Positions 35,535 through 58,503 of a DNA stretch of 64,000 bases are shown here, one piece after another. Every line of letters starts with the position of its first letter. The stretch's first letter is position 1. Origin of the DNA: Staphylococcus phage Machias; the sequence record MW349128.1. One strand, given 5' to 3'. The notes under the pieces are model-generated. The model did not search any database and had not been told where the DNA came from. It saw only the letters and a list, made by a program, of their open reading frames with translations. The position numbers and the translations under genes were made by a program.

Positions 35535-35720
35535 TTAATTTCACTTCCGTTCATTTTATTGGTATAATAAATGGTTGTTAAAGCATTTATCAATATAGAT
35601 AAAAAATTAGAATTTTCAAATAATATTTTAAATATATATTATTTTATTGAGAATGAGTTATTATTAGACTTAATTCTCAAATATAAAATAAAAATTTTAA
35701 TTAAGAGGAGAGATTTGGAT

Positions 35721-41594: not shown

Positions 41595-41603
41595 ATATGA
41601 TTT

Positions 41604-41620
41604 AAATATATATTATAAAA
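41604..41620 (+). promoter_or_regulatory. Conserved promoter-like motif AAATATATATTATAAAA (copy 1 of 5)
   Basis: Exact 17-mer recurring upstream of rightward genes. Confidence 0.45.
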
Positions 41621-41634
41621 ATGTAATAATTAGA

Positions 41635-41662
41635 GTGTAATATCATTAATTTGATATTACAC
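41635..41662 (+). other. Perfect hairpin between the promoter-like motif and the RBS
   Basis: GTGTAATATCA-ttaattt-TGATATTACAC; could terminate the upstream gene or be a 5'-UTR structure. Confidence 0.35.
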
Positions 41663-41692
41663 TATTTTAATTTATAAGGAGATGAAATAGAT

Positions 41693-42937
41693 ATGGTAGA
41701 AGATTTATATGAAAATGATATATTTATCTTTGATTTAAAAAATAATGATTTAAATGAAGATGATAAATATATGGTTAATAAGTTTATTACAAATTTGTTC
41801 TATAGATATTCACTTGCAGAAGGTATAGATAATTTGAATATTTTAAATTCAAAAGAAGTAAAAATAAATGATAATATTAAGATTATCAAAATAAGAAATT
41901 TTAATAATTTAAAAAATGGTGACATATTAGCTTCATTAATATTAAATTATTACCATACTGAAAATTTAGATTTAAAAGAAATATTAAAGGATAATTTAAT
42001 TAAAGAAATAAATATGGAAGATAATTATTATATGAATAAAGATATAAATGTATTAATTAAATTTATGTATATCAGTAAATTTACTTATGATAATGATTTA
42101 AATGAAATTAATATTGATATAGATGAATATTTCTCTAACGAAACAGATATTGCATATATAGTTAAATTAATAAAAGATGAAGATATGAACTTCTTTAAAG
42201 AGAACACACATATAATGAGTTTAAAGTATATTAATGAAATAGGTATAACTCAATTATTTAATAAAATATTTTATACTAAATCTTTTAATAAAGATAAAGA
42301 AGAAAAATTTATTAAAACCGTAATTGATTATATTTATACTGGAACTAAAAATAAAACGTACAGTAATAAAATATTAATTATGAATGAGTTGTATGGTGTA
42401 TTTGGAAGAAAATATAAAAAACCTAGTAACGATATATTAAATTATATTGAAAATACAGTGGATAATATCATTAAGAATAAAGTTAAAGATAGTAAATATA
42501 AAGAATTTGATAAAAAGTATTTAATTGAAAGAATAAGAATTTTTAATAGAAATATAAAAGATATAGGTGTTTATAATAGAATAGATAATTATTTAAAATA
42601 TGATAAAGAAACTTACTTAGGTGATAATGATGATATAGTTAAAGCATTCTTTTTCAATAATTATCAATATGATAGTATTTTTCGTTTATGTGTAATATTT
42701 AAAAATAAATTACCTGAAAAGGAAAATGTTGAAGAATTCTTTATTAAATTATTAGATTTAATTAATAAAAATACAACTACAACAGAGAAGAAAAAACTTA
42801 TGAAAGATATTTTAAACCCTAGTTTTAATAATATTGATAAATTTAAATATAACGATCCAAGCTTTTTAGTTAGTAAATCTAAAGGAGAGCTTAAGAGAAT
42901 AATCATGCACAATACAGTTAAGAAAACATTTATTTAA
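41693..42937 (+). CDS. hypothetical protein (414 aa)
   Basis: RBS aaggagatg. Confidence 0.45.
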   Translation: MVEDLYENDIFIFDLKNNDLNEDDKYMVNKFITNLFYRYSLAEGIDNLNILNSKEVKINDNIKIIKIRNFNNLKNGDILASLILNYYHTENLDLKEILKDNLIKEINMEDNYYMNKDINVLIKFMYISKFTYDNDLNEINIDIDEYFSNETDIAYIVKLIKDEDMNFFKENTHIMSLKYINEIGITQLFNKIFYTKSFNKDKEEKFIKTVIDYIYTGTKNKTYSNKILIMNELYGVFGRKYKKPSNDILNYIENTVDNIIKNKVKDSKYKEFDKKYLIERIRIFNRNIKDIGVYNRIDNYLKYDKETYLGDNDDIVKAFFFNNYQYDSIFRLCVIFKNKLPEKENVEEFFIKLLDLINKNTTTTEKKKLMKDILNPSFNNIDKFKYNDPSFLVSKSKGELKRIIMHNTVKKTFI

Positions 42938-42956
42938 AAGAAAGAGGTTATGCGAT

Positions 42957-43679
42957 ATGTTAGTAAAGGAGAATAAAGAAGTGAAGTTAAAGAATAGAGA
43001 CAGTATACGTATAGATCAATTAATGACAATTAATTTAAATGATCCATCTTCAAAGAATATTATTACTTTTCAGTTATTACTGGAAAGTAATATTTTAAGT
43101 TGTTATATTAAAGATAATCTAGATAAAACGTTATTTACTAAAAATGAGTTAAACAAATATGAAGAATTTATAAATTATACCATAGACAATTTTGAATCTG
43201 AAGGTATAAGAATTAATGGAAAAGAGGATAAATTTTTAACTGATCTATTAAGAAAAGCATCAATTAAAAGATTAGTTAAAATGGTAGACTCTGATACTAT
43301 GATTATTAATGATAAATATCTATTTATTAATCGATTAATTAATATAGGAACTAAAATTAAAGAAGATGATTCCAAGTATATTTCGGATGTAATATACATC
43401 AATTTTAAAGATGAAGTTAATCAAAATAAATTAAATAAAATTATATTAAATCCTAATTTACAATCTGTAATAGAATATCTAATTCATAGGAATTTAATTA
43501 AAGAAATTGATGAAAAAATATTATACAAATGGATTATGTTTTTAGATGAGAATATTAGTAAATGTAAAAGTACTGTATATTATAGGTTAAATCATAGCTT
43601 AGTTAGTTTAATAAATAAGTATAATAATATACAAGAAGCTAAAGGTTATTTAGGATATGAAAGATTAGAATTAGAATGA
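42957..43679 (+). CDS. hypothetical protein (240 aa)
   Basis: RBS agaggtt. Confidence 0.4.
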   Translation: MLVKENKEVKLKNRDSIRIDQLMTINLNDPSSKNIITFQLLLESNILSCYIKDNLDKTLFTKNELNKYEEFINYTIDNFESEGIRINGKEDKFLTDLLRKASIKRLVKMVDSDTMIINDKYLFINRLINIGTKIKEDDSKYISDVIYINFKDEVNQNKLNKIILNPNLQSVIEYLIHRNLIKEIDEKILYKWIMFLDENISKCKSTVYYRLNHSLVSLINKYNNIQEAKGYLGYERLELE

Positions 43680-43733
43680 TTTAATATTTTTAGATATTAT
43701 TATAGATAACTTTAAATAAGGAGAGAATAAATA

Positions 43734-43946
43734 ATGAACCCATCCAGTCCAACTAGTCCTCTAAACCCAGCTAATCCAGCTAGTCCAACTAATCCTGCAA
43801 ATATGTCAGATCATAATAATAATAGCCTTAACGAATCATTATTTAACTTTCCAGATTCTTTCTTAGAGTTTATAATAACGTTTGGTGTGTTAACAATTAT
43901 TTTATTTGGTATTTTCTTTGCAATTTCATTTATTAGAAATTATTAA
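43734..43946 (+). CDS. Small membrane protein with N-terminal Pro-rich tandem repeats and one C-terminal TM helix
   Basis: SPTSPLNPANPASPTNPAN repeats; FIITFGVLTIILFGIFFAISFI hydrophobic segment; RBS aaggagag. Confidence 0.45.
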   Translation: MNPSSPTSPLNPANPASPTNPANMSDHNNNSLNESLFNFPDSFLEFIITFGVLTIILFGIFFAISFIRNY

Positions 43947-43954
43947 AATATATT

Positions 43955-43990
43955 CCCCTAATACTATTAATTTAGTATTAGGGGAAAATT
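43955..43990. terminator. Bidirectional terminator
   Basis: CCCCTAATACTA-ttaatt-TAGTATTAGGGG. Confidence 0.6.
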
Positions 43991-43998
43991 ATTATTTT

Positions 43999-44274
43999 TT
44001 ATTTCTTACTGTCTAATTCAGCTAATTTTAATTTAGCTTTAGTCGCATATTTTTGACGGATTATATCACGCCATTTTTTACGAGCACGAGCAGCTTTTTG
44101 ATATTTAAAGTAAATTGGATCTTGAGCTTCTTTAGCAGCAACTAAAGCTAATTGGTTCAATCTACGTTTACGTTTAGTTTGTTCATCTAAACGCATGATA
44201 TTTTGCTCACGTAAAAGAGCTTCATCAGTAGCTTTCATAATTTGCTCTTCTAGTGGAGATAAATTATTAGACAA
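43999..44274 (-). CDS. small basic protein (91 aa)
   Basis: K/R-rich ORF on the minus strand. Confidence 0.4.
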   Translation of the reverse strand: MSNNLSPLEEQIMKATDEALLREQNIMRLDEQTKRKRRLNQLALVAAKEAQDPIYFKYQKAARARKKWRDIIRQKYATKAKLKLAELDSKK

Positions 44275-44406
44275 AATATTTCACATCTCTTTCTTAGATT
44301 TATTTAGTTTATTAATAAATAGTATGTTTTGTTAATGATAGTTTAAAAATTTTAATAATAAAGAATAACTAGATTTTTATAATTATGTAGGAGGTTAGTA
44401 AACCAA

Positions 44407-45430
44407 ATGACAACAGAATTAAAGAATAAAGAAGAAAGAAAAAGAGCTTTAACTGGATATTTAGAACAATTGGTATGGATGGTTCAAAAGAATAATCCTG
44501 ATTTTGATAAAGAAGAAATATTAAAAGAATGTAGAGAATTTGTAAAAGAAAATGTTAAACCTGTTATGACAGAGGTATCAGGTCAAGAAATGAATGTTGA
44601 TTCTTTATTACGTACAGTTATTAATTCAAATTTAATAGTAACTGGATCAGGTTCGATTTATCAAACACAATCACAAAGAAAAAATTTAAATGCAGAGATG
44701 TTAAAAGACTTCATTGATTCACGTAAAGTAGCTAAACATAATATGTTTATAAGTAAAGGTGTAGACGATGTTAAATATCATAAATATATGAATGAACAAA
44801 AAACAATTAAGATCTTGGCTAATAGTTACTATGGTGCTATGATACAAGGAAATAGTATTTTCTATGATCCTTATTCAGGACCTGCTATCACATATAGTGG
44901 TGTTGATATTGTTACGACTTCAGCAATAGCTTTAGAAAGATTTATAGGTAGTAAAATATTCTTTATGAATATTAGTGAGATTTATAATTATATCGTAAGA
45001 ATATGTCAAGAAGAATATAAAGATCATGATATTAAGATAAATTCAGTTCCTACTGATAATGAAATATTAAAAGGTTTATTGGATAACGTAGAATATAATT
45101 TCTCTGAAGATGAAGAAAATGATTTAAAAGAATTCTTTAGTAATTTAACTCAAGATGAGAAAAATAGAGTTTATTTTAAAAATAATCTTTATGGTTTATT
45201 AGATCACACTGATATATTTGATAATAAAATTAGTAAAATGACAGGTAGAGAAGATTTCTTAGATCCGAACGAACCACCTGAAGATATGATACCATTATTA
45301 GATGAATTATTTGATATATTAGAAGACTGGGTTATTTATAATTATCAAGATTACAATAGAATGTATAGAATGAATTATAAAAAACGTAGAAGTGTACTTA
45401 CAATCGATTATGATAACATGGTCGCTGCTT
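44407..45430 (+). CDS. Family-B DNA polymerase, C-terminal half, exon 1 (motif B to motif C); no exonuclease/motif-A region in this gene
   Basis: Kx3NSxYG motif KILANSYYGAM; following IFYDPYSGPAITYSGVD (compare RB69 FRYYDLRNATAITTFGQ); motif-C-like VLTIDYDNM at the very end; strong RBS taggaggt means it is an independent start. Confidence 0.65.
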
Positions 45431-45591
45431 AAAGTAATTTAAGTTGATTCACATTATTAATTGCTGAGAAAGTATTTATTAAATTAATCAGCATCAATCA
45501 ATATGATTGTTCAACGACTAAATATAATGATACTCATAAAGAGTATATGATATAGTCTATTTTATATTTAAAAATATAATATTAAAGACAG
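45431..45591 (+). mobile_element. Mini group I intron polB-IA (3' end uncertain: 45591, 45603 or 45612)
   Basis: 5' aaagtaatttaagttgat..., P TTAATTGCTGAG, Q TTAATCAGCATC, R GTTCAACGACTAAAT, S ATGATATAGTCTAT; the in-frame continuation has no stops. Confidence 0.6.
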
Positions 45592-45840
45592 ATAGTAACT
45601 TCGTACATTTAGATCCATTATATCAAAAAATGAAAGAAAAGAAACCTGAAGATTTCCCTATTGCAGAAAATGGTTTAGAAGATAAATTAGAACAACGTGT
45701 AGGTAATATATCTATTATTAACTATCAAATTACTAAATTGCTAGAATTATCTTATCATAGATTCTGTAAAGATTTAGGATTAGAAGATGAACATTTAGGT
45801 GTTATATCTATGAAAAATGAGTATGTAAATGCTCCAGTAT
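45592..45840 (+). CDS. DNA polymerase B exon 2 (~83 aa)
   Basis: Open frame ...LDPLYQKMKEKKPEDF...NEYVNAPV joining exon 1 and exon 3 in frame. Confidence 0.55.
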
Positions 45841-45996
45841 ACAGTAATGTGTATTAGTAAATATTATTAATTGCTGAGACAAAATAAAATTAATCAGCAT
45901 CTTCAAATAATGAAGTTCAACGACTAAATATAATAATTCTTAATAATAAAGAATATGATATAGTCTAGTCTTATATTTAAAATATAAGTATAAACG
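45841..45996 (+). mobile_element. Mini group I intron polB-IB
   Basis: 5' acagtaatgtgtatt..., full P/Q/R/S set; 3' end ...ataaacG|; the E2(t)+tt+E3 junction reads ...NAPV-F-LLDKQ in frame. Confidence 0.65.
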
Positions 45997-46697
45997 TTTT
46001 ACTTGACAAACAGTTAACAACAGATAAAAAGAAAACTTATGCTTCATCAGTAATTCAACAAGAGGGTAATTTAGTTCAACCACCAGACTTAGATGTTAAA
46101 GGTATGGCTATTAGAAAAGTTAATACTAATAAACGTATTAGAGAATTATTTACTGAAATATTACAAAAAGATATCTTAGAAAATAAAACTGGAATTGATA
46201 GAATTGGAATTATACGTAAATATAAAGAAATTGAAGAAATGATTAAAAAATCATTAGAGAATGGTGATATTGAATTCTTAAAACCTGGTAAAGCTAATAA
46301 CGCAGAAGTATATAAAGATCCTTATACACAAATGAATTATAGAGCAGCTTTATCATGGAATTTAATGTATCCAGATAAAGAAATATCTCTTCCAGCAAAT
46401 ATCTTAATGGTTAAATTAAATATTAAATCATTTGGAGATATTAAGGATAAAGTTGATGATGAAGAATTATTAGATAAATTTAGAGAAGTATTTAGAAACG
46501 AAAGATTAGTTAAAAATGGAATGAATGTAATTGCAGTTGAAGGTAATACAATTCCTGAAGAATTTAGACCTTTTATTGATTATGATTCAATGATAGAAGA
46601 TCATATTAAACCAGGTAAAGATATTATTGAATCTATTGGAGTTAAAGTGTTAGAATCTTCAAATAGTTCTTTCGTATCAAATATGGTTAAATTTTAA
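45997..46697 (+). CDS. DNA polymerase B exon 3 (C-terminal thumb; KGxxxRK = KKRY-like motif)
   Basis: ...PPDLDVKGMAIRKVNTNKR... in the same frame as the track ORF 46104-46697, open upstream to the splice site. Confidence 0.6.
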
Positions 46698-46720
46698 AAA
46701 AAAAAAGGAGGGTATATTTA

Positions 46721-47224
46721 ATGAGATACTTTTTATTTAAACCTAAAAAGTTTCAAGAACTATTTGAAACTGAAAAGAAATTATCATCTGTCTTTGAATA
46801 TTATAGAGATATGAAAAAAGATATTGTATTTAAAGTTGATGAAAATGATGATATTTTTATGATGTTATATAATATTTTAAGTGATGAAATATTACCTTTT
46901 ATAAGATGTAAAGTATACAATAAAAAAGATGGAGAAATACTAAAAGCATCAGAATTATATGTCCCTATTAGTTTGGATATTCATAAAGAAATAAATATAA
47001 ATAAAAATAGTATAGAGTATGATTCTAACATGCCTTATAAACATGGTTTAATTGAATGTCCATCTATTGACGAAGATAATACTAACAATTATCTTCGTTT
47101 AAATTTTCAATATAATGACAAAGATGATTATTTTTATATTTACTTAAATGATATTTATGCTATTTTTGAAGAGATAGATAAAACAGAATTTATGAAAATA
47201 GAAACTAAAAAGAATTTTATGTAG
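46721..47224 (+). CDS. hypothetical protein (167 aa)
   Basis: RBS aaaggaggg. Confidence 0.45.
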   Translation: MRYFLFKPKKFQELFETEKKLSSVFEYYRDMKKDIVFKVDENDDIFMMLYNILSDEILPFIRCKVYNKKDGEILKASELYVPISLDIHKEININKNSIEYDSNMPYKHGLIECPSIDEDNTNNYLRLNFQYNDKDDYFYIYLNDIYAIFEEIDKTEFMKIETKKNFM

Positions 47225-47283
47225 ATTGAAAAAATTTATTATTTTCATATAAAAATTCTTGCTTAATTTTTAATTTTATGTTA

Positions 47284-47300
47284 AAATATATATTATAAAA
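47284..47300 (+). promoter_or_regulatory. Promoter-like motif AAATATATATTATAAAA (copy 2)
   Basis: Exact 17-mer, 62 nt upstream of the 47362 start. Confidence 0.45.
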
Positions 47301-47361
47301 ACGAGAATATGTCACTATTAAAATTAAACTTATTCTTAATAAATTTGGAGAGTGAAAAGAA

Positions 47362-48672
47362 ATGGCAAAACAATCAGATGTATTTAGTAAAAAGAAATCA
47401 TTATATAGAAAAAATGGTAGAAAAATACCTTCTAAGTTTAGAAAGATGGATGTAGATGGTACTTGGTTTTATAGATTTGATCATAATAGATTTATCATTG
47501 ATAATTTAACTAGATTTATGGAAGATAAAGAATTAAAAAAATTATTAAATGATTATAGAAATAATTATGATAATAAAGAAAAATTTAATAATGATTGTTA
47601 CTTCTTTGAATTAGATAAAGATATACCTAAATTAAATAAATCTCAATTAAAGATATTCTTCACTCATTTATCTAGAAAACATATTGGAAAAGATTTCTTA
47701 AAAAATATTACTTTGAAAGATAATTCTAAATTAGAAATAAAAGAATTTGATGATTTAGAAATATGGTCAAGAGAACCTGATAAAGAAGAAGTATATGACG
47801 TTGGTTATCTTGATATGAAAGATTATAGAATGATTGCTCATATTGATCATGAAAATGAAGAAATTGTTATTCATACAGATATTGAAGAAGAAAATCCAAA
47901 ATCATATAGTACTTTAATTAGTTCTTTAGAATCAATTGAAATTGATGATTATTATGAAGATATTAGCTCTGATGAAATAAGAATTAAATTAAATGACTTT
48001 AATTTAAGAAAAGTATTTAATAAGACTAATAGTAAAATATTTAAAGTTATTTTACCAGTTACTTATAATTATGAAGGTTTTGATGATCAAGTGTCCTTCT
48101 TATTTGATAATTTCAGTAAAACATATATTAAACAACTTGAAAAAGAAGAATACGATAAGAAAATGCCTATCGGAGGACAACCTTATCATTTAAGACCTGA
48201 AAATAGACCTTATTATGCTAAACGTAGAATAATTAAAGATTGGAATATTTATGAAATATTTGATGAAGATAAAGATGGATATAAATTATTCAGTGTTAAA
48301 GATGATCAAGGGTTTATTTATTTAATATACTATATTGGTAAGAATTATCATGGTAAAGGTATAATAGTTAACGGTAAAGAATCTCCAGAACTTCAAGATC
48401 CGTCTAATTATAGAAAATCAGTTAAATTAAAAGATATTTATTACAGTGTATTAATTTCACAAGCTAAATATAATCTAATGAAGAAAAATAAATTTGATAT
48501 TTATACAGCTTTTGATACATCCAACCCTAAATATATGACAATTTCAGATGAAGAAAATATTCATACAACTGATTTCTTAATACCTGAAAGACCATTTAAA
48601 ATTAGACAAACTAAATTTAGAGAAGATAAAATATCAAATTTAAAAGATAAATTCGTAGAGGAGTTTGAATAG
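47362..48672 (+). CDS. hypothetical protein (436 aa)
   Basis: RBS ggagagtg. Confidence 0.45.
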   Translation: MAKQSDVFSKKKSLYRKNGRKIPSKFRKMDVDGTWFYRFDHNRFIIDNLTRFMEDKELKKLLNDYRNNYDNKEKFNNDCYFFELDKDIPKLNKSQLKIFFTHLSRKHIGKDFLKNITLKDNSKLEIKEFDDLEIWSREPDKEEVYDVGYLDMKDYRMIAHIDHENEEIVIHTDIEEENPKSYSTLISSLESIEIDDYYEDISSDEIRIKLNDFNLRKVFNKTNSKIFKVILPVTYNYEGFDDQVSFLFDNFSKTYIKQLEKEEYDKKMPIGGQPYHLRPENRPYYAKRRIIKDWNIYEIFDEDKDGYKLFSVKDDQGFIYLIYYIGKNYHGKGIIVNGKESPELQDPSNYRKSVKLKDIYYSVLISQAKYNLMKKNKFDIYTAFDTSNPKYMTISDEENIHTTDFLIPERPFKIRQTKFREDKISNLKDKFVEEFE

Positions 48673-48675
48673 TAT

Positions 48676-49410
48676 ATGGAGGATAATGAATATATGTATA
48701 CAGAAGATGAAATGAATACAGGTCATATAGTTGCGGATTGTGATGAAGTTTTAGTCAATATATCGCCAAAGATAGTTCAATTAATGCATGAAGATTATGA
48801 ATATTATAATCAATTCTTTAGATTATCTGAAGATTTTGATTATAATAAACATTATGATGTAATATTAAGTAGACCTGAATACTATATAGATCAATGGTTA
48901 GTTAGAAAAGATGTTTATAATAACTTTTCAGAAAAAGAAGTTAATGAAGCAAGAGAAAGACTACAAAATGAAATTATATTTAAAAAAGATTTATATGATG
49001 AACTTCAACCAACTAATTTAGGTAGAAGTTTATCATATACCATTAATACACCGTTAATGAATAAATTAACTATCGTTACTAAAACTTCAGATAATAATCT
49101 AAAATCTAAAGAGAAGTTTTTAAAAACTTTATTTAGAGGAAGTATGGATAAAGTTGATATATTCTACTTAGAACCAGATGAGAAAAAATCTGATGTGATT
49201 AATTCTTTAGGATATGTTACTAGAATATATGAAGATGAAGTAAGTAATATTAGTGATATTATAAAGAACTGTCAAAATGTAACACAAACAGGAATTGATA
49301 TTCCTTCATTGGGATATAATCAAGATATCGATGAAGGAACGATATTAAAAGCTAAAGAAAAGAAAATTGATTTAAACTATTTCAGTTATATGGGACAAAG
49401 TATTAAATAA
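48676..49410 (+). CDS. HAD-superfamily 5'(3')-deoxyribonucleotidase-like protein (NT5C-like)
   Basis: N-terminal HIVADCDEVLVNISPKIV resembles HAD motif I (DxDxV) of NT5C-family enzymes. Confidence 0.4.
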   Translation: MEDNEYMYTEDEMNTGHIVADCDEVLVNISPKIVQLMHEDYEYYNQFFRLSEDFDYNKHYDVILSRPEYYIDQWLVRKDVYNNFSEKEVNEARERLQNEIIFKKDLYDELQPTNLGRSLSYTINTPLMNKLTIVTKTSDNNLKSKEKFLKTLFRGSMDKVDIFYLEPDEKKSDVINSLGYVTRIYEDEVSNISDIIKNCQNVTQTGIDIPSLGYNQDIDEGTILKAKEKKIDLNYFSYMGQSIK

Positions 49411-49419
49411 ACAAATAAT

Positions 49420-49470
49420 CCATGTTTGACAAATTCAAGTCAAACATGGATTTATTATAATTTTTTTTTT
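49420..49470 (+). terminator. Rho-independent terminator
   Basis: CCATGTTTGAC-aaattcaa-GTCAAACATGG followed by T10. Confidence 0.65.
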
Positions 49471-49508
49471 ATAAAAATTGACATTGAGGAAGGAAATTAA
49501 AATGAAAA

Positions 49509-49802
49509 ATGGACATTAAAGATTTCATAATAGTTTTTTCTTTATTCTATCTTATTTTAGTTGCTATACCGTCTGTAATATTCTTAAGTAAAATTAATTA
49601 CAAAAAGAGTAATAAAATTATTATATTATTCTTTAATATAATAATCGTTTTATTTATATGTATTACTGTATTACTGTATAATTTATTTAATAAAGAAGAT
49701 AATAAAGAATCACTAAAATATTATAATAAAGAAGAAAATATAATAGATTATTATATCGAAAAAGATATTAATCCATTATTAAAAGAAAGTGATGTGAAAT
49801 AG
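49509..49802 (+). CDS. small membrane protein (2 predicted TM helices)
   Basis: FIIVFSLFYLILVAIPSVIFL and IIILFFNIIIVLFICITVLLY. Confidence 0.4.
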   Translation: MDIKDFIIVFSLFYLILVAIPSVIFLSKINYKKSNKIIILFFNIIIVLFICITVLLYNLFNKEDNKESLKYYNKEENIIDYYIEKDINPLLKESDVK

Positions 49803-49805
49803 TAA

Positions 49806-50979
49806 ATGAAAGTAGATATGATAGATATTGAACAAGTCATAACTGATACAAATGCTAAAGAAGTAACCAATCCTGTATTTTTCGATTCAGGTATACTACC
49901 AAAAGAAGATGGTTTATTTTCATATGATATATTTGGTTTAATAGGTACTCCTGAAAGAAAAACCAATTTAGGTTGGATTAATTTAAAGGATAAATACCTT
50001 AATCCGGTGGCTTATAAAGCATTAAAAGATTTAGATAAAAATATTGAACTATGTATTCAGGGTTCAGAGTATTTTAAAGTAGAAAAAGGTCAATTAGTTC
50101 CTTCAGAAGATGGAGATACTGGACTGAATTTCTTATATGAAGTATTTGATGATTTAAAATTTAGAAAGAATGATTCTCGTATTAGATCTGAAAAAATTGA
50201 TATGATTAAAAATACAGATAAGCAAAAAATATTTGTAGATAAATGGCTAGTAATACCTGCTTTTTATAGAGACTTTAATCCTAATGAAACTTCAGGAGAA
50301 ATTCAAGATACTGAAGAAGTTAATAATATGTATTCTTCTATTATACGTTCTGTAGATGCTATTAGTTTTAATTCTTTTGGTTTTATTGCTAACAGTACTA
50401 AATATAATATACAAAATACATTATTTGAAATATATCAGAAATTTACTTCAGGAGAATTATCAGGTAAAACTGGTTTTATGCAAAAACGTATATTGGGTAA
50501 AACAGTAGATAATAGTACTCGTGCAGTTATTTCTTCACCTAAAATTAATTCGAATAGATGGGATGAAATGCAGATAGAGTTTGGTGAGTTAGGTGTACCA
50601 TTAACTCAATTAGTTACCTTATTTTTACCATTCTTTAATAAGTATATAATTGATTTTATTGAACTTCATAAAGATGCTTTCCAAACAGCTACTGGAAATG
50701 ATGAGAAAGAATTATCATTAGAAGAAGTGTATGAACAATTCGATGATAAATCTATTAAGAATATGCTAGAATTCTTTATTAAAGATCCTAATGAAAGATT
50801 TAGTCCTATATATGTAAATGATAGAGAAGGTAAACGCCATAAAGTTAAATTATTTGAAAAAACTTTGGGTAGAGATTTTACTGTAATTGATTTACTTTAT
50901 ATTGCTGCAACCGAAATAGTAGAAGATAAGCATGTTATGTATTCAAGATATCCGATTAATAAAATGGTCGCTGCTTAAA
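49806..50979 (+). CDS. Multisubunit RNA polymerase beta-prime-like subunit (N-terminal half), exon 1
   Basis: LPKEDGLFSYDIFG (compare KPERDGLFCERIFGP), GWINLKDKYLNPV (compare GHIELASPTAHIW), KRILGKTVDNSTRAVISSP (compare GKRVDYSGRSVIVVGP); no Zn finger, as in phiKZ/AR9-type phage RNAPs. Confidence 0.7.
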
Positions 50980-51140
50980 GTGATTTAAGTTGATAAACAT
51001 TGTTAATTGCTGAAATACTATTAATAAAGTTAATCAGCATCAATTAAATATAATTGTTCAACGACTAAATGCAATGATACTATTTAATAGTATATAATAT
51101 AGTCTAATTTATATAATACTTATATAAATATAATAAATGC
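50980..51140 (+). mobile_element. Mini group I intron rpoC'-IC (3' end uncertain, 51139-51156)
   Basis: 5' aaagtgatttaagttgat..., P/Q/R/S set, S at ~51100-51108, ...ataaatG at 51139. Confidence 0.6.
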
Positions 51141-51341
51141 GAAAATTTCTTGAACGTAGCACCTGCTAAAATTAAAATATTAACTACTGTTGATACTATT
51201 CCAGAAATAATTTTAGATGATATAGTATTAAAAGATTACCCTAAAGTAGTAAGAGAGTATCCTGTTGATGAAGATATTTTCTTAGATACTGCAATCATAC
51301 ACAATTCATATGCTCAAGCACTTGGTGCAGATTTTGATGGC
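51141..51341 (+). CDS. beta-prime-like exon 2, ending in ...HNSYAQALGADFDG (first part of the catalytic NADFDGD motif)
   Basis: ADFDG followed by an intron; the frame is open back to ~51120. Confidence 0.6.
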
Positions 51342-51491
51342 AAAATTTTATATTACCATCATTAAATAATATTAATTGCTGGAAAATCTAATAAGATAAT
51401 CAGCATCAACTTAATAAAAGTTGTTCAACGACTAAATATATTACTAAAGAAGATATAGTCTAATTATATGTAAATACATGTATATAAAATG
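51342..51491 (+). mobile_element. Mini group I intron rpoC'-ID, splitting the DFDG|D catalytic motif
   Basis: P ATTAATTGCTGG 51372, Q, R GTTCAACGACTAAAT, S AAGATATAGTCTAAT ~51450-51464; ends ...aaaatG| 51491; next exon begins DMISIRSLWSVEA (compare [14 protein letters not shown]). Confidence 0.65.
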
Positions 51492-51617
51492 GATATGATT
51501 TCAATACGCTCTTTATGGTCTGTAGAAGCAAATAAAGAAGCTGATAAACTTATTAATAAGAAAACTAATTACTTAAACTACACAGGAAATAGTATACGTG
51601 GAGTTGGTAATGAGAGT
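51492..51617 (+). CDS. beta-prime-like exon 3 (42 codons DMISIRSLWSVEANKEADKLINKKTNYLNYTGNSIRGVGNES)
   Basis: Completes the NADFDGD-like motif and aligns with the segment after it in bacterial beta-prime; not in the ORF track (<60 aa). Confidence 0.6.
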
Positions 51618-51759
51618 AAGTTTGTATGCTCTCAATAAATTTCATTAATTGCTGGAAAAACAAAATTAATCAGCATCAACTTAATAAAAGTTGTTCAACG
51701 ACTAAATATGAAAATGATTTAAATATCATAAGATATAGTCTAATTATCATAAATATATG
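51618..51759 (+). mobile_element. Mini group I intron rpoC'-IE
   Basis: 5' aagtttgtatgctc..., P AATTGCTGG 51647-51655, Q, R, S ~51730-51744, ...aaatatatG|. Confidence 0.55.
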
Positions 51760-51792
51760 GTACAAGCTTTATATTCTTTAACTAAAGAATAA
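51760..51792 (+). CDS. beta-prime-like terminal mini-exon (VQALYSLTKE-stop); boundary tentative
   Basis: In frame with exon 3; resembles ...AERLYRSGLA; followed by a terminator. Confidence 0.35.
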   Translation, partial: VQALYSLTKE

Positions 51793-51803
51793 TTTAAAAA
51801 TTC

Positions 51804-51840
51804 AGAGTAACGGTCTAATATAGATCGTTACTCTTATTAT
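51804..51840 (+). terminator. Terminator hairpin after the split beta-prime gene
   Basis: AGAGTAACG-gtctaatatagat-CGTTACTCT then TTATTAT. Confidence 0.55.
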
Positions 51841-51866
51841 ATTGCTTTTATACAAAATACTTATTT

Positions 51867-51883
51867 AAATATATATTATAAAA
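51867..51883 (+). promoter_or_regulatory. Promoter-like motif AAATATATATTATAAAA (copy 3), heading the paralog array
   Basis: Exact 17-mer 30 nt upstream of the 51913 start. Confidence 0.45.
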
Positions 51884-51912
51884 TAGAAGTATATTAAAAT
51901 ACAAAAGGAGAA

Positions 51913-52545
51913 GTGATTATTTTGAATATTAATGATTATAGATATTTTAAAATGGATGATGGATTAATGCAAATCCATAAAGATAAAATTAAAGGAAATA
52001 TTACAGACTTGATAGGAATGTTGCATATTGATGTAGATCGTATCAAGGAAGATAATTTTCTAAATTTAGGTTTAGAAAGATTAAATATAAATATTTCTTT
52101 TGATAATCTTGAATTGGTATGGGAAAATATAAAATTTCAATTTAGTTTGTCGATAATTATTTTTGCTGAAAAACAAGAAAATGAATTAAATGAATATACA
52201 AGTAGTATAAGATTTTTTTATGATAATGAAGAAAGACAAATGGAGAGTGATAGATTTAAAAAACTTATATTAAATGTTGATTATATAAAAAATTTTGTAA
52301 GTTTAATGGTAGATGATAAAGAAATCGATGATTTAACAATTTCTATTTTTAATTATGATAAAAATGATTTTCATTTAAAATGTTCTGATATTGTAATTAG
52401 ATACTTATACGATTTAGAAAGAAGATTTAATGATAAAGGTTATGATTTGTTATTAAATGGTAAGAATATAAATGAATTAGAAGACAATGAAGAAAAAGAT
52501 ATTGATAAGATTAAGAAATATTTAGTGAAAGAAAATTTTAAATAA
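51913..52545 (+). CDS. C-tail family paralog 1 (210 aa; ...KIKKYLVKENFK)
   Basis: RBS aaaaggagaag; conserved C-terminal tail. Confidence 0.6.
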   Translation: MIILNINDYRYFKMDDGLMQIHKDKIKGNITDLIGMLHIDVDRIKEDNFLNLGLERLNINISFDNLELVWENIKFQFSLSIIIFAEKQENELNEYTSSIRFFYDNEERQMESDRFKKLILNVDYIKNFVSLMVDDKEIDDLTISIFNYDKNDFHLKCSDIVIRYLYDLERRFNDKGYDLLLNGKNINELEDNEEKDIDKIKKYLVKENFK

Positions 52546-52556
52546 GGAATGATAAA

Positions 52557-53219
52557 ATGGATAATATAAAAGTATACAATAATACAATAACTAATCAAAA
52601 ATTTTCTTTAGATAATAATGAAATTGATAATGGTAGATTCTTATATAAAGCTATGGAACAAGTAACAAATAAAAATCAAAAGAATATTGAATTTCTTGAT
52701 AGTAGTTTTCTAGTAAATAATATGCAGATGAATTTCCATTTTTATATTTACTCGGATTTTATTATAAACTTTAAAAATCTAACTGGAAAAGATAAAAATA
52801 TATTAATTAATGGTAATAATTCTGATATAACAAGGGCTTCATTTGTCTGTTTTTATGACAATATTGATAATGAAAGAATATTCCAAATTTATCTAAAAAC
52901 AAAGAAATCTAAAAAGATAAGAAATATATTAAAAGATTATGAAAGTGAGAAATATTTAATTGAAAGAATAATGTTAATTGGTGAAGATATATCTTTTAAA
53001 GTAGATTTTAAAAAAGAATATTTAGATAGTATAGAAGATAATGAATATAAGTCTTTAGACAGTTTGATTCACTATATATTAAAAGATATGTTAATTAATA
53101 TAGATGGAGAATTTATACCTTTTATGGAATTTATTAAAAATTATCTTTATTCTATATCTAAAGAAATTACTGATGAAAAAGAAATTAAGAAATATTTAAT
53201 TAAAGAAAATTTTAAATAA
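52557..53219 (+). CDS. C-tail family paralog 2 (220 aa; ...ITDEKEIKKYLIKENFK)
   Basis: RBS taaggaatg; conserved tail. Confidence 0.6.
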   Translation: MDNIKVYNNTITNQKFSLDNNEIDNGRFLYKAMEQVTNKNQKNIEFLDSSFLVNNMQMNFHFYIYSDFIINFKNLTGKDKNILINGNNSDITRASFVCFYDNIDNERIFQIYLKTKKSKKIRNILKDYESEKYLIERIMLIGEDISFKVDFKKEYLDSIEDNEYKSLDSLIHYILKDMLINIDGEFIPFMEFIKNYLYSISKEITDEKEIKKYLIKENFK

Positions 53220-53236
53220 TGGAGTTGAAATAGATA

Positions 53237-53722
53237 ATGATATATTACAAAAATAAAGTAAATGGTGAAATATATGAAGTTAATAATATTCATAGAAAAG
53301 ATGATGCTTTTTATTATGTGTTTGGTAATGAATTTAAAAAAGAGAATTCGTCTTTTTATAGATCTGATGGTAAAAAGATTGACCTATATGATGAAGATGT
53401 AGGAAGTATAAAATTGGAGTTTTTCTTAATTTACGGTTTTATTAATCTTCATTTAACTACGCACATTTCTTGGGATCTTAATAGTATTCCTTTTATACCT
53501 AAAAATATAGATTTAACAAACCAAAATCTTGTCATATCAGACTCTTCAATTGATCTTTATTATTTATTTTATAAAAGATTATGTTATGCGATAGATGTAA
53601 ATATGACACATTATAATATTCCATTAGAAAAATTTAATTTTGATAATGAAGATATATTTGAAATAATTTCAGAAGATTGCAAAGAAGTAAAAGATTTTAA
53701 AGTTAGAAATCATTTTAAATAA
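53237..53722 (+). CDS. C-tail family paralog 3 (161 aa; degenerate tail ...KEVKDFKVRNHFK)
   Basis: RBS aatggagttg; tail diverged. Confidence 0.5.
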   Translation: MIYYKNKVNGEIYEVNNIHRKDDAFYYVFGNEFKKENSSFYRSDGKKIDLYDEDVGSIKLEFFLIYGFINLHLTTHISWDLNSIPFIPKNIDLTNQNLVISDSSIDLYYLFYKRLCYAIDVNMTHYNIPLEKFNFDNEDIFEIISEDCKEVKDFKVRNHFK

Positions 53723-53735
53723 GGAGGAATTATTA

Positions 53736-54407
53736 ATGGAAGGTTATGATTTTGATTTATATATAACAAATAGGGATTTGAAAGATAATCATTTTATGAA
53801 AATAAATAAAGATAGGTATAATAATGATAGAGACTATATTGAAAGAGTAAATACTATCAATATGATAAAATTATTAACTCATGTCTCTTATCCTGATTAT
53901 GAAAATATTATATCATTTAATGTTGACTGTAAACTGAAATTAAGAGGTTTTAATGATTATAAAGATATTAAGTTATCTTATTATCAAGAAGTAGAATCAA
54001 AATCAACTATTATTGCCGGAATATCATTTGTAAAAACTGAATTAAATTTAATAAGTAAAGAGAAAGATAATAGATATCTAACAGATGAATTATTGTATGA
54101 GTATGATATGATGAAAATAAATACAAGTATAAATAATAAACTTAATACAATTAAATTAACTAAAAATGAAGCCACTGCTTTGAATAGTATTAGTCAGAGA
54201 AGTCCTAAATTTCATTTATCACTTGATAAGTTTAGAAGAGAATTCTTAAAGATGATAACTGAATTAAATAAGTATGAAGATATACAGTTTTTAATTGATG
54301 GAACGTATTATAGTTTAGAAGATATCAATTTATACAATAAAGATTTATTTAGAACTGCTACTGATAAGGAATTCAAGAATTATTTAGTTAAAGAAGGATT
54401 TAGATAA
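53736..54407 (+). CDS. C-tail family paralog 4 (223 aa; ...TDKEFKNYLVKEGFR)
   Basis: RBS taaggaggaa. Confidence 0.6.
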   Translation: MEGYDFDLYITNRDLKDNHFMKINKDRYNNDRDYIERVNTINMIKLLTHVSYPDYENIISFNVDCKLKLRGFNDYKDIKLSYYQEVESKSTIIAGISFVKTELNLISKEKDNRYLTDELLYEYDMMKINTSINNKLNTIKLTKNEATALNSISQRSPKFHLSLDKFRREFLKMITELNKYEDIQFLIDGTYYSLEDINLYNKDLFRTATDKEFKNYLVKEGFR

Positions 54408-54410
54408 AAA

Positions 54411-54427
54411 AGTGTATTAAATATATA
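54411..54427 (+). promoter_or_regulatory. Promoter-like motif AAATATATATTATAAAA (copy 4), internal to the array
   Basis: Exact 17-mer. Confidence 0.45.
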
Positions 54428-54502
54428 TTATAAAAATGAGATAATGAATCTAACAGAGTTCATTATCTCTAATAATATCTTAAATAGAGGAGATGAAGTT
54501 AA

Positions 54503-55145
54503 TATGGATAATAATGAATATATAAATAATCATGAATTCTATAAAGTTGATAGTAGAGGACAAATAATAGTAACTAATAAAGATGTTACTAAAGATGAAT
54601 TAAATGTTAATCTATTCAAAGAATTATTTAATTTTAATAATGTTAAGAAAAAAATAGATGAAATTGGTTTATTTTCATTAAAAACCAATAGTATTTTGAT
54701 AAGGGACAAAAATACTTATTACAGAACTAAGAATTCTTATATAGATATAACAGACATGTGCAATAATAATTATTTTGAATTATATTTTGTATTTTCATTA
54801 TTAGATAAAAATGAAAATGGATGCAAGAATATAGGACCTTTTAAAAGTTCAATTAGCAGTCAAGTATTTTCATATACAGCTAAAATTCAAATTAAAAATA
54901 GAGACAATTTGGAACATGAATTAATTTCAAATATAATTGATCTCTTTAGTAGTAAAAAAGAAACAAATTTAATAATATATACAGTTGATTCAGTAGAGGA
55001 TGATATTGATTTTATGACAAGTCGAGAATTTAAGAAAGATTTAATTTTAGAAGAATATACACTCGATGAAATATACAAGGTCTTAGAAAAATTAGAAAGT
55101 GAAAAAGAAATTAAACAATACTTAGTTAAAGAAAATTTTAAATAG
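54503..55145 (+). CDS. C-tail family paralog 5 (start re-set to ATG 54503; ...SEKEIKQYLVKENFK)
   Basis: RBS agaggagatg upstream of 54503; the track start at 54444 would overlap the promoter motif. Confidence 0.55.
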
Positions 55146-55151
55146 AGAGGA

Positions 55152-55697
55152 GTGAAATATATGGATTTAAAAAATTCTAGATTTTTAAGAAAAAGTAAAC
55201 ATCATAAAATAATACAATTTAAGCATAATAATATAAATAATGATCATGTATTAGGATTATCTTTATTAATATTATTTACTAATGTTTATATAAGAAGTGA
55301 TTCTGATGATATTAGTATTTATGATTATTTATCAAATGTATACATGAAAATAGATGGTTATTTAAAAGGTCCTTTATCAATAACGCATGGAGACAATAAT
55401 AGCGTATTAGTATATTCTAGAATTAGATTACCATTAGATCTATTTAAATTAAGAGAATACAATGTTAATACTAGATTATACACATATATTCTTCTTGATA
55501 ATTATGAAACTGATAAAGGAGATTTAATTCAATCCGTTGTTAATGCTTCTGATTATATTATTAAGAATGATAGAATTAAATTAAAAATAATTATTGATGG
55601 AATTGAAAAAGATATTGGTGGTATATTAAAATACTTTGATGAAGTTAAAGATGAAAAAGAAATTAAGAAATATTTAGTAGAAAAAAATTTTAAATAA
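55152..55697 (+). CDS. C-tail family paralog 6 (181 aa; ...KDEKEIKKYLVEKNFK)
   Basis: RBS tagagaggagtg. Confidence 0.6.
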   Translation: MKYMDLKNSRFLRKSKHHKIIQFKHNNINNDHVLGLSLLILFTNVYIRSDSDDISIYDYLSNVYMKIDGYLKGPLSITHGDNNSVLVYSRIRLPLDLFKLREYNVNTRLYTYILLDNYETDKGDLIQSVVNASDYIIKNDRIKLKIIIDGIEKDIGGILKYFDEVKDEKEIKKYLVEKNFK

Positions 55698-55714
55698 TGA
55701 AAGAGGTAATTAAA

Positions 55715-56332
55715 ATGAATGAATCATTATATGTATCTGATATTTTAGAATATAGTTTCATTGATAAAAAGAGTCTTTCTAGAAAAGAATTATTTGATAT
55801 ATCTTTTGATCAATTTTTCAAACATCCAGGCTGTACTGGTTATGATGTTAAAAATGTTCGTCTTTGGATAAATTCTATGGATGGTCTAATTCTAAGATTC
55901 GGTTATGATATGAATAATCTTTTTTATGTAAATGAATTTGATCTTTTCGTAGATAAAAATGATGGTCAATATGAATTTAGTTTTGTATTAGATATTCCAG
56001 CGTTTTCAAAAAAAGAAGTTCACTGTGAAATAGGACCTTTTGTATCTAGAGAAGGTGAAATTGAATTTTATTTTAATGATACAGAAATATATACTGAAGG
56101 AAAAACTTTACTAGACAAAGCTAAAGAATACTTGACTAGAGATATATTTAATAAAAATGGTTCTGCATTTAATGTCTTTTCATTAAATAACGAAGACAAT
56201 ATTCATGATTACAAAATAAGTAAAGAGGATATAAAAGAAATCTATAATTTAAATATTATAGATGAACTATTTAAAGAAGTAACGGATGAAAAGGAAATTA
56301 AAAATTACTTAGTCAAGAAAGGTTTTGAATAA
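55715..56332 (+). CDS. C-tail family paralog 7 (start likely ATG 55715; ...VTDEKEIKNYLVKKGFE)
   Basis: RBS aaagaggtaa before 55715; the track start is 55697. Confidence 0.55.
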   Translation: MNESLYVSDILEYSFIDKKSLSRKELFDISFDQFFKHPGCTGYDVKNVRLWINSMDGLILRFGYDMNNLFYVNEFDLFVDKNDGQYEFSFVLDIPAFSKKEVHCEIGPFVSREGEIEFYFNDTEIYTEGKTLLDKAKEYLTRDIFNKNGSAFNVFSLNNEDNIHDYKISKEDIKEIYNLNIIDELFKEVTDEKEIKNYLVKKGFE

Positions 56333-56333
56333 T

Positions 56334-57011
56334 ATGATTGATTTTAAATTATACAAAAATATAGATAATGGAAAATATATAGAAGCAAAAGATGGTATAG
56401 AAAAATATATTAGATCTTTTTCATTTATTAACTATGTGGATGATAATCTATACTTAGTGAAGCATGAAAAATATACAAAAGACGACTATATATTGAGACA
56501 TCAAGGAATGACTAGAAATTTCATTGTAATTAATCACAATAACATTATGTATAGAATAAAACACATAGAATTGACTATTCGGTTGAAGCTTAATCATGAA
56601 GCTATAATTAATATTAAACTTACACCTACAGCTGCAACTCTTAATAAATTTGAAAGTGTTGGAAATTTCACAAAAGTAAGAAACTTATTTTATAACCGGA
56701 AATTATTTAAATATGAAAATTATCCTAAATTTGAATATGATTATAAAGAAGAAGATCAGATTTTCTTTAGTGAAATGTTTGAAGCGGTATTAAAAGAAAT
56801 TGAAAATGATGATATTGATTTTTATGTAATTAATGAAGAAATTATAGAAGAATTTGAAGAAAATAAGAATAAAATAAAACTAGAAAATTTCTCGAAGTAT
56901 AAAGATGGTACATTAGAAGATTATAATATATTAAATTTCAGTAAGAAATTTATTGAAATTAAAGATGAGAAAGAAATTAAAAACTATTTAGTAAATAAAA
57001 ACTTTAGGTAA
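56334..57011 (+). CDS. C-tail family paralog 8 (...IKDEKEIKNYLVNKNFR)
   Basis: ATG at ~56334 right after the upstream stop; the track start is 56325. Confidence 0.55.
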   Translation: MIDFKLYKNIDNGKYIEAKDGIEKYIRSFSFINYVDDNLYLVKHEKYTKDDYILRHQGMTRNFIVINHNNIMYRIKHIELTIRLKLNHEAIINIKLTPTAATLNKFESVGNFTKVRNLFYNRKLFKYENYPKFEYDYKEEDQIFFSEMFEAVLKEIENDDIDFYVINEEIIEEFEENKNKIKLENFSKYKDGTLEDYNILNFSKKFIEIKDEKEIKNYLVNKNFR

Positions 57012-57057
57012 TTTAATTAACTTACTTTTATAATATATGAAAGAAGTGATTAACTAA

Positions 57058-57843
57058 ATGTCTAATGAAAATAACGGAATTGATTTAATTTCACAAATTA
57101 ATGATATGATGGAAGAATATAAAATGCTAGTTGGATTTAAATCTAAAATGGAACGTAAAGAAATTCAATTAGAAGAAAGAATTAGAGATTTAACTAAGAA
57201 TCTGAAATATCCTAAACATACATTTGTATCTAATATGGAAGCTAATATTATTAGTGTAGAAAAAGAAATTAAAGACACTATTATGCAAATGAAAAATGTT
57301 AAAAAAGATATTATTGACTTAACTATGAAAGCTCAGAAAATGGCTGAAGATGATGAATCTGAAGATAACTATAAAGTGCTTGCTAAAAATGTACTTAGTC
57401 AGCTTAATAATATGTCTAATAAAGATATATTAAACAGCATGACAGAAAATGAAGAAGATACTGCTGAAGATGAAGAAGATTTGAAAGATAAATTAGATCA
57501 AACTTTAGAAAATCTAAATAAAGATATAGATGAAGATGAAAAAGAAATTGAAAAAAGAGAGGAATTACAAAAAGAAGTTAATGAACTTAAACATCAAGAC
57601 TTAGCTTCTATTTTAAAAGTATATAAAGGCACATTGCAATTCTTTGTATTAGGTGATACTCCAAATGAATATGAACTAGTAATTGCTGATAATGAAATGA
57701 ATATCATTGAAGAAGATGAGCTTGAAGATGAATATCCAGAATTATTTACTATGACTAGAGATCTTATCTTTGAAGATGTTGAAGGTAATGATGAAATAGT
57801 TAAAGATGAATTTGGAAATATTTATCAAAAAGCAGAATTTTAG
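57058..57843 (+). CDS. acidic coiled-coil protein (261 aa) embedded in the array; lacks the family tail
   Basis: Highly charged, E/D/K-rich. Confidence 0.5.
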   Translation: MSNENNGIDLISQINDMMEEYKMLVGFKSKMERKEIQLEERIRDLTKNLKYPKHTFVSNMEANIISVEKEIKDTIMQMKNVKKDIIDLTMKAQKMAEDDESEDNYKVLAKNVLSQLNNMSNKDILNSMTENEEDTAEDEEDLKDKLDQTLENLNKDIDEDEKEIEKREELQKEVNELKHQDLASILKVYKGTLQFFVLGDTPNEYELVIADNEMNIIEEDELEDEYPELFTMTRDLIFEDVEGNDEIVKDEFGNIYQKAEF

Positions 57844-58040
57844 ATTATTTTGCCCATAATATATCGCATTAATATATTATGGGTATTTATTATATAGGAG
57901 ATGAATTAAATATGTTAAAAAGATTATATGAATTATTAACTAGAAAAAGATTTGAAAAGAAACTATATGAATTTAAATTTAGTTATCAAGACCATGAGCA
58001 TCTTAATGAAGTTCATGAATTTAGTAAAAACAATTAAGGA

Positions 58041-58451
58041 GTGATATTATTGCTATCAGAATACAGATTAAATAGTAATAAAGAAAATATTAAACAACTA
58101 TTAAGAGATTATGGTTTTAGAAAAGATTCTTATACTAAAGCGTTATTATATAGAAAGCGTGTGACTGATCCAAATGATATTTTGTTCATAGAAGCTGAAG
58201 TGGTTATTGAAACTAATTCAGATCTAGTTAAATTAAATTATTATGATAATAAACATAATAGATTTAATCCTTCTAATGAATCGCCAGAGGTTCAAAAAGG
58301 TTTAAGTATATTAGAAGACATGAAAGAAAAAGAATTATTAATTGAACCAGAATTAACTCAAAATAAAGAAGAAAAAGAAGTTCTTGATAGACTTAAAGAA
58401 CAACGTGAAGAAATGGAAAATGGACAAGTATCACCTAATTCTGAAGATTAG
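58041..58451 (+). CDS. hypothetical protein (136 aa), no family tail
   Basis: RBS taaggagtg. Confidence 0.45.
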   Translation: MILLLSEYRLNSNKENIKQLLRDYGFRKDSYTKALLYRKRVTDPNDILFIEAEVVIETNSDLVKLNYYDNKHNRFNPSNESPEVQKGLSILEDMKEKELLIEPELTQNKEEKEVLDRLKEQREEMENGQVSPNSED

Positions 58452-58454
58452 AAT

Positions 58455-58471
58455 AAATATATATTATAAAA
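58455..58471 (+). promoter_or_regulatory. Promoter-like motif AAATATATATTATAAAA (copy 5)
   Basis: Exact 17-mer 61 nt upstream of the 58532 start. Confidence 0.45.
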
Positions 58472-58478
58472 ACGTTAT

Positions 58479-58503
58479 CCCAATACTATTAAATTAGTAT
58501 TGG
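58479..58503 (+). other. Hairpin between the promoter-like motif and the RBS
   Basis: CCCAATACTAttaaatTAGTATTGGG; same promoter-hairpin-RBS layout as at 41635. Confidence 0.35.

Follow-up and report, generated by a model that had tools for sequence, protein, structure and literature searches.

Putative AR9-type early promoters and predicted 5'-terminal stem-loops in a Staphylococcus jumbo phage

A motif repeated between genes of the phage

The stretch of DNA analyzed here (the window; 64,000 nucleotides [nt] of Staphylococcus phage Machias, sequence record MW349128.1) encodes tail sheath, tape-measure and tail-lysin proteins, a ribonucleotide reductase, a split family-B DNA polymerase and a fragment of a virion RNA polymerase (RNAP) of the beta'-type, and carries a short motif that is repeated between genes and frequently followed by a hairpin. 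This motif and these hairpins are the subject of the present analysis. By nucleotide comparison, the region 41000-48000 is closest to phages AH12 and PB50 (~94% identity), with MarsHill, Madawaska, S6, PALS_2, DC4, SA1 and LY01 at 77-80% identity, and the DNA polymerase gene within it gives faint matches to the Bacillus phages AR9 and PBS1. These relationships place the source of the window, a Staphylococcus jumbo phage, in the AR9/PBS1-like group. For genome-wide counts, the complete PB50 genome was assembled (OR770614.1; 86% coding) and its genes were called by a simple heuristic, namely the longest open reading frame (ORF) with a ribosome-binding site; the synteny of the window with PB50 runs across the ends of the PB50 record.

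Five exact copies of the 17-mer AAATATATATTATAAAA, all on the plus strand, lie at 41604, 47284, 51867, 54419 and 58455, in a region that is extremely AT-rich (GC 0.19-0.25). No copy occurred in 100 dinucleotide-preserving shuffles (0.00 expected versus 5 observed), which excludes chance. The original prediction had listed five copies and placed four of them correctly, the remaining one having been put at 54411, 8 nt away from its actual position at 54419; it had also announced a near-copy before the AAA+ ATPase gene, which exists (AAATATATATTATTTTA) but is located at 35630(+) rather than ~35628, and had overlooked another near-copy, located at 29942-29926 of the minus strand. The 17-mer opens with 13 bases, AAATATATATTAT, that are letter for letter the early-promoter consensus of AR9. 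Searches of the window with the pattern AAATATATATTATN6G gave 7 perfect matches, none with a single mismatch and 7 with two, the perfect sites being the five 17-mer copies together with 35630(+) and 29942(-). As approximately 15 chance matches are expected within two mismatches, the two-mismatch matches represent background, and conservation of the motif in the window is all-or-none. A G occupies the seventh position after AAATATATATTAT at 7 of 7 window sites and 26 of 26 PB50 sites, although it was not demanded by the search. The PB50 consensus reads tTT-AAATATATATTAT-AAAAAT-G, without a -35-like element and without a TG extension.

The 8-mer TATATTAT, which is emphasized in the MarsHill paper, proved unusable as a motif definition, since TATATTAT-N6-R occurs at chance level in the window (21 observed versus 18.4 expected). 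Only the full 13-mer plus the G is discriminating, and annotation should rely on this definition rather than on the 8-mer core. A scan of IMG/VR with the 14-base pattern was set aside: among the matches listed, there was almost only one per contig, no fetched locus was similar to the window, and the scan is silent on motif distribution.

All perfect sites are intergenic (7 of 7 in the window and 26 of 26 in PB50), and a gene start on the same strand lies close downstream of all 7 window sites and of 25 of the 26 PB50 sites (36-135 nt). In the window, the predicted start G precedes start codons equipped with a ribosome-binding site by 36-72 nt, roughly as claimed by the original prediction, in which the copies were placed shortly upstream of gene starts. 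Thus, perfect sites were never found within genes or in the wrong orientation, even in a genome that is 86% coding, which is the opposite of the distribution named at the outset as evidence against a promoter. Among 13 one-mismatch sites in PB50, the 9 that differ only in the first four bases are intergenic, and the 4 with a mismatch in the core are inside genes; the two-mismatch sites, 40 of 47 of which fall within genes, are noise. The median leader length is ~60 nt here versus ~40 nt in AR9. The remaining perfect site of PB50 is followed by ~1 kb without an ORF (OR770614.1, locus 153520-152492, minus strand) and is located upstream of a retron-like reverse-transcriptase gene (150938-152491); the ORF-free stretch might give rise to a non-coding RNA for the reverse transcriptase or, alternatively, form a long structured leader.

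The copies had also been described as typically lying just after a terminator, which is incorrect for 4 of the 5. A terminator-like hairpin precedes only the copy at 51867 (51804-51834), and the 59 nt ahead of 47284 show no folding advantage over shuffles (z +0.53). The copies at 41604, 54419 and 58455 are located 3-11 nt past the preceding stop codon, and the hairpins at these three sites are found downstream of the motif instead (41634-41663, 54438-54469 and 58477-58506).

Identity of the motif with the AR9 early-promoter consensus

In AR9, 41 early transcription starts determined by differential RNA sequencing and primer extension define promoters of the form AAATATATATTAT-(6N)-G(+1), early transcription is insensitive to chloramphenicol and is credited to the injected virion RNAP, and a single core mismatch upstream of g057 abolished promoter activity (PMC5312081). 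Identical 13-mers are labeled as early promoters in the GenBank record of AR9. For MarsHill, which belongs to the same clade as the phage analyzed here (~78% DNA identity), a MEME analysis had already detected this motif upstream of 29 genes, and five virion and five non-virion RNAP subunit genes are reported in the clade (Korn et al., bioRxiv 10.1101/2020.12.14.422802); the syntenic stretch of MarsHill has the motif upstream of the corresponding genes. The beta-prime-like subunit that had been reported in the window is encoded, as a fragment, at 49806-50978 (Table 1), its orthologues in PB50 and MarsHill being annotated as 'viral RNA polymerase beta-prime subunit', and the PB50 annotation includes both viral and non-viral RNAP subunit genes.

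The similarity to AR9/PBS1 (Lavysh et al. 2016, 2017; PMC5312081) extends to the 13-bp element, the 6-nt spacer, the G at +1, the intergenic position before early operons and the membership in a phage group with two split multisubunit RNAPs. The promoters nevertheless differ in that the AR9 spacer varies, whereas here it is almost fixed (AAAAAT, with tTT before the element), and in that the first five bases of the element are less strictly kept in AR9. According to a review (PMC7598289), such an element centered near -10 is present in every RNAP-encoding jumbo phage, and phages of the phiKZ family share an extended, highly conserved AT-rich element around this position, a start a fixed few nt downstream and an injected multisubunit RNAP (PMC7598289, PMC5312081). 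Their consensus is, however, phage-specific; of the two resemblances initially proposed, the one to AR9 holds at the level of sequence and the one to phiKZ only at the level of general architecture.

Several of the sites are retained in front of equivalent genes. The genes behind 35630 are homologous to AR9 g028/g029 (E 4e-23 and 1e-30), a pair located behind the mapped promoter P028, so that the site is positioned like P028; it is also conserved in five relatives. The 29942(-) site, 56 nt before its start codon, is conserved in PB50, MarsHill, LY01, S6 and SA1, and 4 of the 7 window sites are kept before homologous genes in MarsHill, LY01, S6 and SA1 or some of these. Genes behind the other six window sites have no AR9 homologue or a different arrangement. 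The RecD-like helicase operon (30223), the AR9 counterpart of which has an early promoter, is preceded by no plus-strand early motif and by nothing else recognizable in 29943-30222.

Two alternatives to a promoter of the phage RNAP were weighed. The motif might be a promoter for host SigA (sigma-70-type), with TATTAT, at -12 to -7, taking the place of the -10 hexamer: it agrees with TATAAT at 5 of 6 positions and has the G exactly 7 nt past it, as in sigma-70 geometry. Despite this geometry, the lack of a -35 element, of a TG extension and of any enrichment of sigma-70-like sites over shuffles (196 versus 188; 173 versus 190) argues against SigA. Furthermore, positions -32 to -23 are unconserved, -15/-14 are always A and T, the 13-14 invariant bases far exceed the needs of a -10 hexamer, one-mismatch variants are absent from the window, and transcription from the identical motif in AR9 does not require protein synthesis and is credited to the virion enzyme (PMC5312081). 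We thus consider a host promoter very improbable. Slightly less probable still is a repeated DNA element without a role in transcription (a protein-binding, replication or packaging site) or a remnant of a mobile cassette. Some motif-plus-hairpin units of PB50 (e.g., 140214, 125275 and 95923) are nearly identical over ~60 nt, which could reflect duplication, but the orientation is always that of the downstream gene, the spacing to the start codon is narrow, the sites are exclusively intergenic and the motif matches an experimentally mapped AR9 promoter base for base.

We regard the motif sites as probable early promoters of the AR9 type in this Staphylococcus jumbo phage, with a probability of roughly 0.9, in agreement with the phage-RNAP promoter originally proposed, which the identity of the core with the mapped AR9 consensus supports. 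By homology with AR9, we infer where transcription starts, that it is early and which polymerase is responsible. The promoter motif itself is not new, having been published for AR9 and already predicted in this clade for MarsHill. Its identity in the two groups shows that Bacillus and Staphylococcus jumbo phages have kept the early-promoter code of AR9 without any change of letter, and the putative early transcription units of the present phage can be drawn from sequence alone.

Stem-loops at the predicted transcript starts

We folded the first 40 nt of the early transcripts predicted in the window, PB50, MarsHill, SA1, LY01 and S6, a set of 56 non-redundant 5' ends. The median minimum free energy (MFE) was -9.15 kcal/mol, with a median z of -4.06, and 66% of the ends had an MFE ≤ -6 with a stem starting at or before +5. 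Most of the strong stems (28 of 39) start exactly at the predicted +1 and another 9 of the 39 at +3 to +5. By contrast, no such stem was present at any of 38 mapped AR9 early 5' ends (0%; median -1.4, z +0.28; p 3e-11), and only 6% of 125 PB50 leaders without the early motif had one (p 9e-15). In the window, 5 of the 7 predicted 5' ends fold far better than shuffles (z -3.0 to -6.1), with stems beginning at +1, +1, +1, +4 and +12.

The sequences of the stems differ between lineages at matching syntenic positions. Because the hairpins are unrelated in sequence, they do not constitute a single RNA family amenable to a covariance model, and energy statistics combined with comparison of orthologues were used instead. 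A six-orthologue alignment of the stem at 29923 retains 10 pairs; 1 change is compensatory (GC<->AU), and 5 others are one-sided and go via G-U. Pairing of the 35649 stem is retained despite changed sequence in MarsHill, LY01, S6 and SA1, and in the 58477 stem, changes in both arms preserve pairing (..ACC/GGT.. in PB50 versus ..ACTA/TAGT.. in the window; CTC/GAG in SA1 versus CCC/GGG in the window). The sites of MarsHill and SA1 syntenic with 41604 carry unrelated hairpins, which begin at +1.

The hairpins could alternatively be mainly terminators or attenuators of the upstream genes, the promoters being squeezed between stop codon and terminator, with no function at the 5' end. In line with this possibility, the hairpin at 41634-41663 is terminator-like, has a T-rich tail and may also terminate the upstream gene, the strongest hairpins are found where the promoter is ≤ ~11 nt past the upstream stop and no other terminator is present, and the stem GAGGTAATGACA... 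also makes a palindromic terminator between convergent genes (33264-33293). However, packing alone does not account for the stems that start exactly at +1. Moreover, the tails that follow the stems are T-poor (mean of 2.7 T in 8 nt versus 4.0 for other post-stop hairpins; p 0.003), below the genome background as well, and a stem directly followed by a U-tract, the hallmark of an intrinsic terminator, is not the pattern of the post-motif hairpins, 41634-41663 being the exception. Hairpins are also present at divergent promoters without an upstream gene on the same strand (29923(-) and 35649(+) in the window; 201331 in PB50), and an efficient terminator 30 nt past a promoter would presumably abort the promoter's own transcripts. 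A predominantly terminating role thus appears unlikely.

A stem-loop close to the 5' end is an established stabilizer of mRNA: pairing of the 5' terminus hinders RppH and 5'-end-dependent RNases, and Bacillus subtilis RppH requires ≥2 unpaired 5' nucleotides (review PMC3997798). The leaders of B. subtilis aprE and Escherichia coli ompA and papA have the same layout, with a stem-loop few nt from the 5' end followed by the ribosome-binding site. The T7 phi10 leader is another 5'-terminal stem-loop that stabilizes mRNA. Unlike these known stabilizers, the hairpins described here are tied to one class of phage promoters (about two-thirds of the sites) and vary freely in sequence, and a stabilizing role for them is what we infer from the likeness. 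The mapped early transcripts of AR9 lack the stem-loop with which the leaders of the present group are predicted to start.

Several points weigh against this overall reading of promoters and hairpins. The predicted ends at 47303 and 51886 in the window have no significant hairpin. In PB50, the strongest hairpins follow promoters located ≤ ~11 nt past the previous stop, and hairpins are weaker where the gap is larger or the region is divergent, a pattern that also suits hairpins acting on the upstream message at its 3' end. Positional orthology with AR9 was demonstrated for only 1 of the 7 sites, most downstream genes having no AR9 homologue, and the DNA polymerase gene (44407), which has an early promoter in AR9, is preceded here neither by the early motif nor by anything else recognizable (44275-44406). 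The heuristic gene calls in PB50 match the GenBank table where compared, yet one divergent site was mislabeled as co-oriented. Finally, the literature searched yielded no transcript data for this or any other Staphylococcus jumbo phage, and start, timing and polymerase are extrapolated from AR9.

Considering all this, we judge the odds to be about even that the hairpin is a lineage-specific 5'-terminal stabilizer. We give the same even weighting to the broader proposal that in the Staphylococcus jumbo lineage, but not in AR9, the early promoter is joined to a stem-loop at the first transcribed base and that base-paired 5' ends protect most early messages. As for the promoters, to which the higher probability given above applies, a multisubunit RNAP that the virion carries and delivers together with its DNA presumably reads them, the product of 49806-50978 being part of that presumed enzyme. 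The 13-bp AAATATATATTAT would span -19 to -7, followed by an A-rich 6-nt spacer (mostly AAAAAT) and initiation at the invariant G. A stem-loop at +1 to +5, not followed by a U-tract, usually forms the beginning of the predicted transcript; next come ~25-40 nt of AT-rich sequence ending in a ribosome-binding site, and then the start codon. According to the stabilizer proposal, the stem-loop would shield the 5' end from 5'-end-dependent decay (RppH, RNase J1/J2) and, in tightly packed arrays, may double as a 3'-end cap for the message from upstream. It might in addition mark phage versus host mRNA during host shut-off. If the stem indeed stabilizes early messages, promoter and hairpin would constitute a compact, lineage-specific promoter-plus-stabilizer cassette. 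Within the literature searched, the hairpin locked to +1 appears to be the only part not described previously; the passages of the MarsHill paper on promoter, motif and consensus do not mention it.

Two further observations concern the predicted 5' ends. A G at +2 occurs in 0 of 31 PB50 early promoters and, by eye, is also absent from the mapped AR9 5' ends. This absence fits avoidance of 5' pyrophosphate removal, a second-position G being a key recognition determinant for B. subtilis RppH (PMC3997798), and equally an initiation preference of the polymerase. Furthermore, a family of intergenic palindromic hairpins, with arms (A/G)GGTAATGA...TCATTACC and loops that often read TTAATT, is found in the window (33264-33293, 37276-37307, 39289-39326, 43953-43986 and 54438-54469) and throughout the PB50 genome, where AGGTAATGA is present in 29 copies, 18 of them intergenic (14% expected). 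The same stem serves as the +1 hairpin behind early promoters and, in the gaps between convergent genes, as a palindrome that is terminator-like in both directions.

Predicted transcription units and neighboring genes

The seven putative promoters would divide the window from 29 to 64 kb into early transcription units, six rightward and one leftward (Table 1). Apart from the AAA ATPase/VWA pair and the product of 48676-49410, a homologue of the AR9 deoxyribonucleotidase g151, most genes behind the sites have no PHROG or Pfam assignment.

Table 1. Predicted promoters, hairpins and associated features of the window. Starts and transcription units are predictions; E, E-value.
Feature	Position (strand)	Sequence or structure	Predicted start	Energy	Remarks
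Putative early promoter	29923..29942 (-)	AAATATATATTAT-TTTAAT-G	29923		Would drive 28950-29867(-), 28275-28937(-)
Stem-loop	29900..29923 (-)	8 bp, from +1		-8.4 kcal/mol, z -4.06	
Putative early promoter	35630..35649 (+)	AAATATATATTAT-TTTATT-G	35649		Would drive AAA ATPase 35721-37268 and VWA/metallopeptidase 37338-39281
Stem-loop	35649..35678 (+)	From +1		-9.2 kcal/mol, z -3.03	
Putative early promoter	41604..41623 (+)	AAATATATATTAT-AAAAAT-G	41623		Would drive 41693-42937, 42957-43679, 43734-43946
Stem-loop	41634..41663 (+)	12 bp, +12 to +41, then ATTTTAATTT		-15.2 kcal/mol, z -6.08	Terminator-like
Predicted terminator	43953-43986	Palindromic			End of 41604 unit
Putative early promoter	47284..47303 (+)	AAATATATATTAT-AAAAAC-G	47303		Would drive 47362-48672, 48676-49410
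Predicted terminator	49417-49452				End of 47284 unit
Virion-RNAP beta'-type subunit gene fragment	49806..50978 (+)				phrog_2986, E 9e-81; 43% identity to AR9 g145, tblastn E 2e-103
Terminator-like hairpin	51804..51834 (+)	14 pairs, 5 GC, T-rich tail			Upstream of 51867 promoter
Putative early promoter	51867..51886 (+)	AAATATATATTAT-AAAATA-G	51886		Would drive four ORFs, 51922-54407
Putative early promoter	54419..54438 (+)	AAATATATATTAT-AAAAAT-G	54438		Would drive ORFs 54504-57843
Stem-loop	54438..54469 (+)	12 bp, exactly from +1, GAGATAATGAA...TTCATTATCTC		-14.0 kcal/mol, z -3.79	
Predicted terminator	57851-57885				End of 54419 unit
Putative early promoter	58455..58474 (+)	AAATATATATTAT-AAAAAC-G	58474		Would drive ORFs 58532 to at least 61734
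Stem-loop	58477..58506 (+)	12 bp, +4 to +33		-16.9 kcal/mol, z -5.33	

In the upstream regions of PB50, the late motif of AR9, AACA-N6-T[AG], is modestly overrepresented on the sense strand (32 sense and 17 antisense matches; 23.5 +/- 4.3 in shuffles), with a peak 30-49 nt before start codons, which is suggestive but insufficient to call late promoters. Matches in the window lie upstream of 5764, 6853, 15199(-) and 49509; they precede the gene for the tail sheath and the two genes whose PB50 counterparts are annotated as virion-RNAP fragments. For MarsHill, a late motif could not be found de novo by the authors (bioRxiv 10.1101/2020.12.14.422802).

The catalytic gene of the family-B DNA polymerase is in two parts (44407-45432 and 46104-46697, both PF20286) with a small ORF between them, and the virion-RNAP beta' gene is likewise in pieces (49806-51365). 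Such splitting fits the annotations of MarsHill, PB50 and AR9, which include introns and homing endonucleases.

At least 7 tandem ORFs behind the putative early promoters (52557-60859) share a C-terminal tail of ~20 amino acids with the pattern F-x-E-[VI]-[TK]-DEK-[EDV]-IK-x-[YF]-x-[VI]-K-x-x-F-x-stop, their stops being located at 53219, 55697, 56332, 57011, 59311, 60122 and 60859; a related tail ends at 54407. The bodies of these ORFs are otherwise weakly similar. As a guess, the common tail might be an interaction or targeting peptide. AR9 has no such ORF, and PB50 has six, all at 244.8-250.5 kb.

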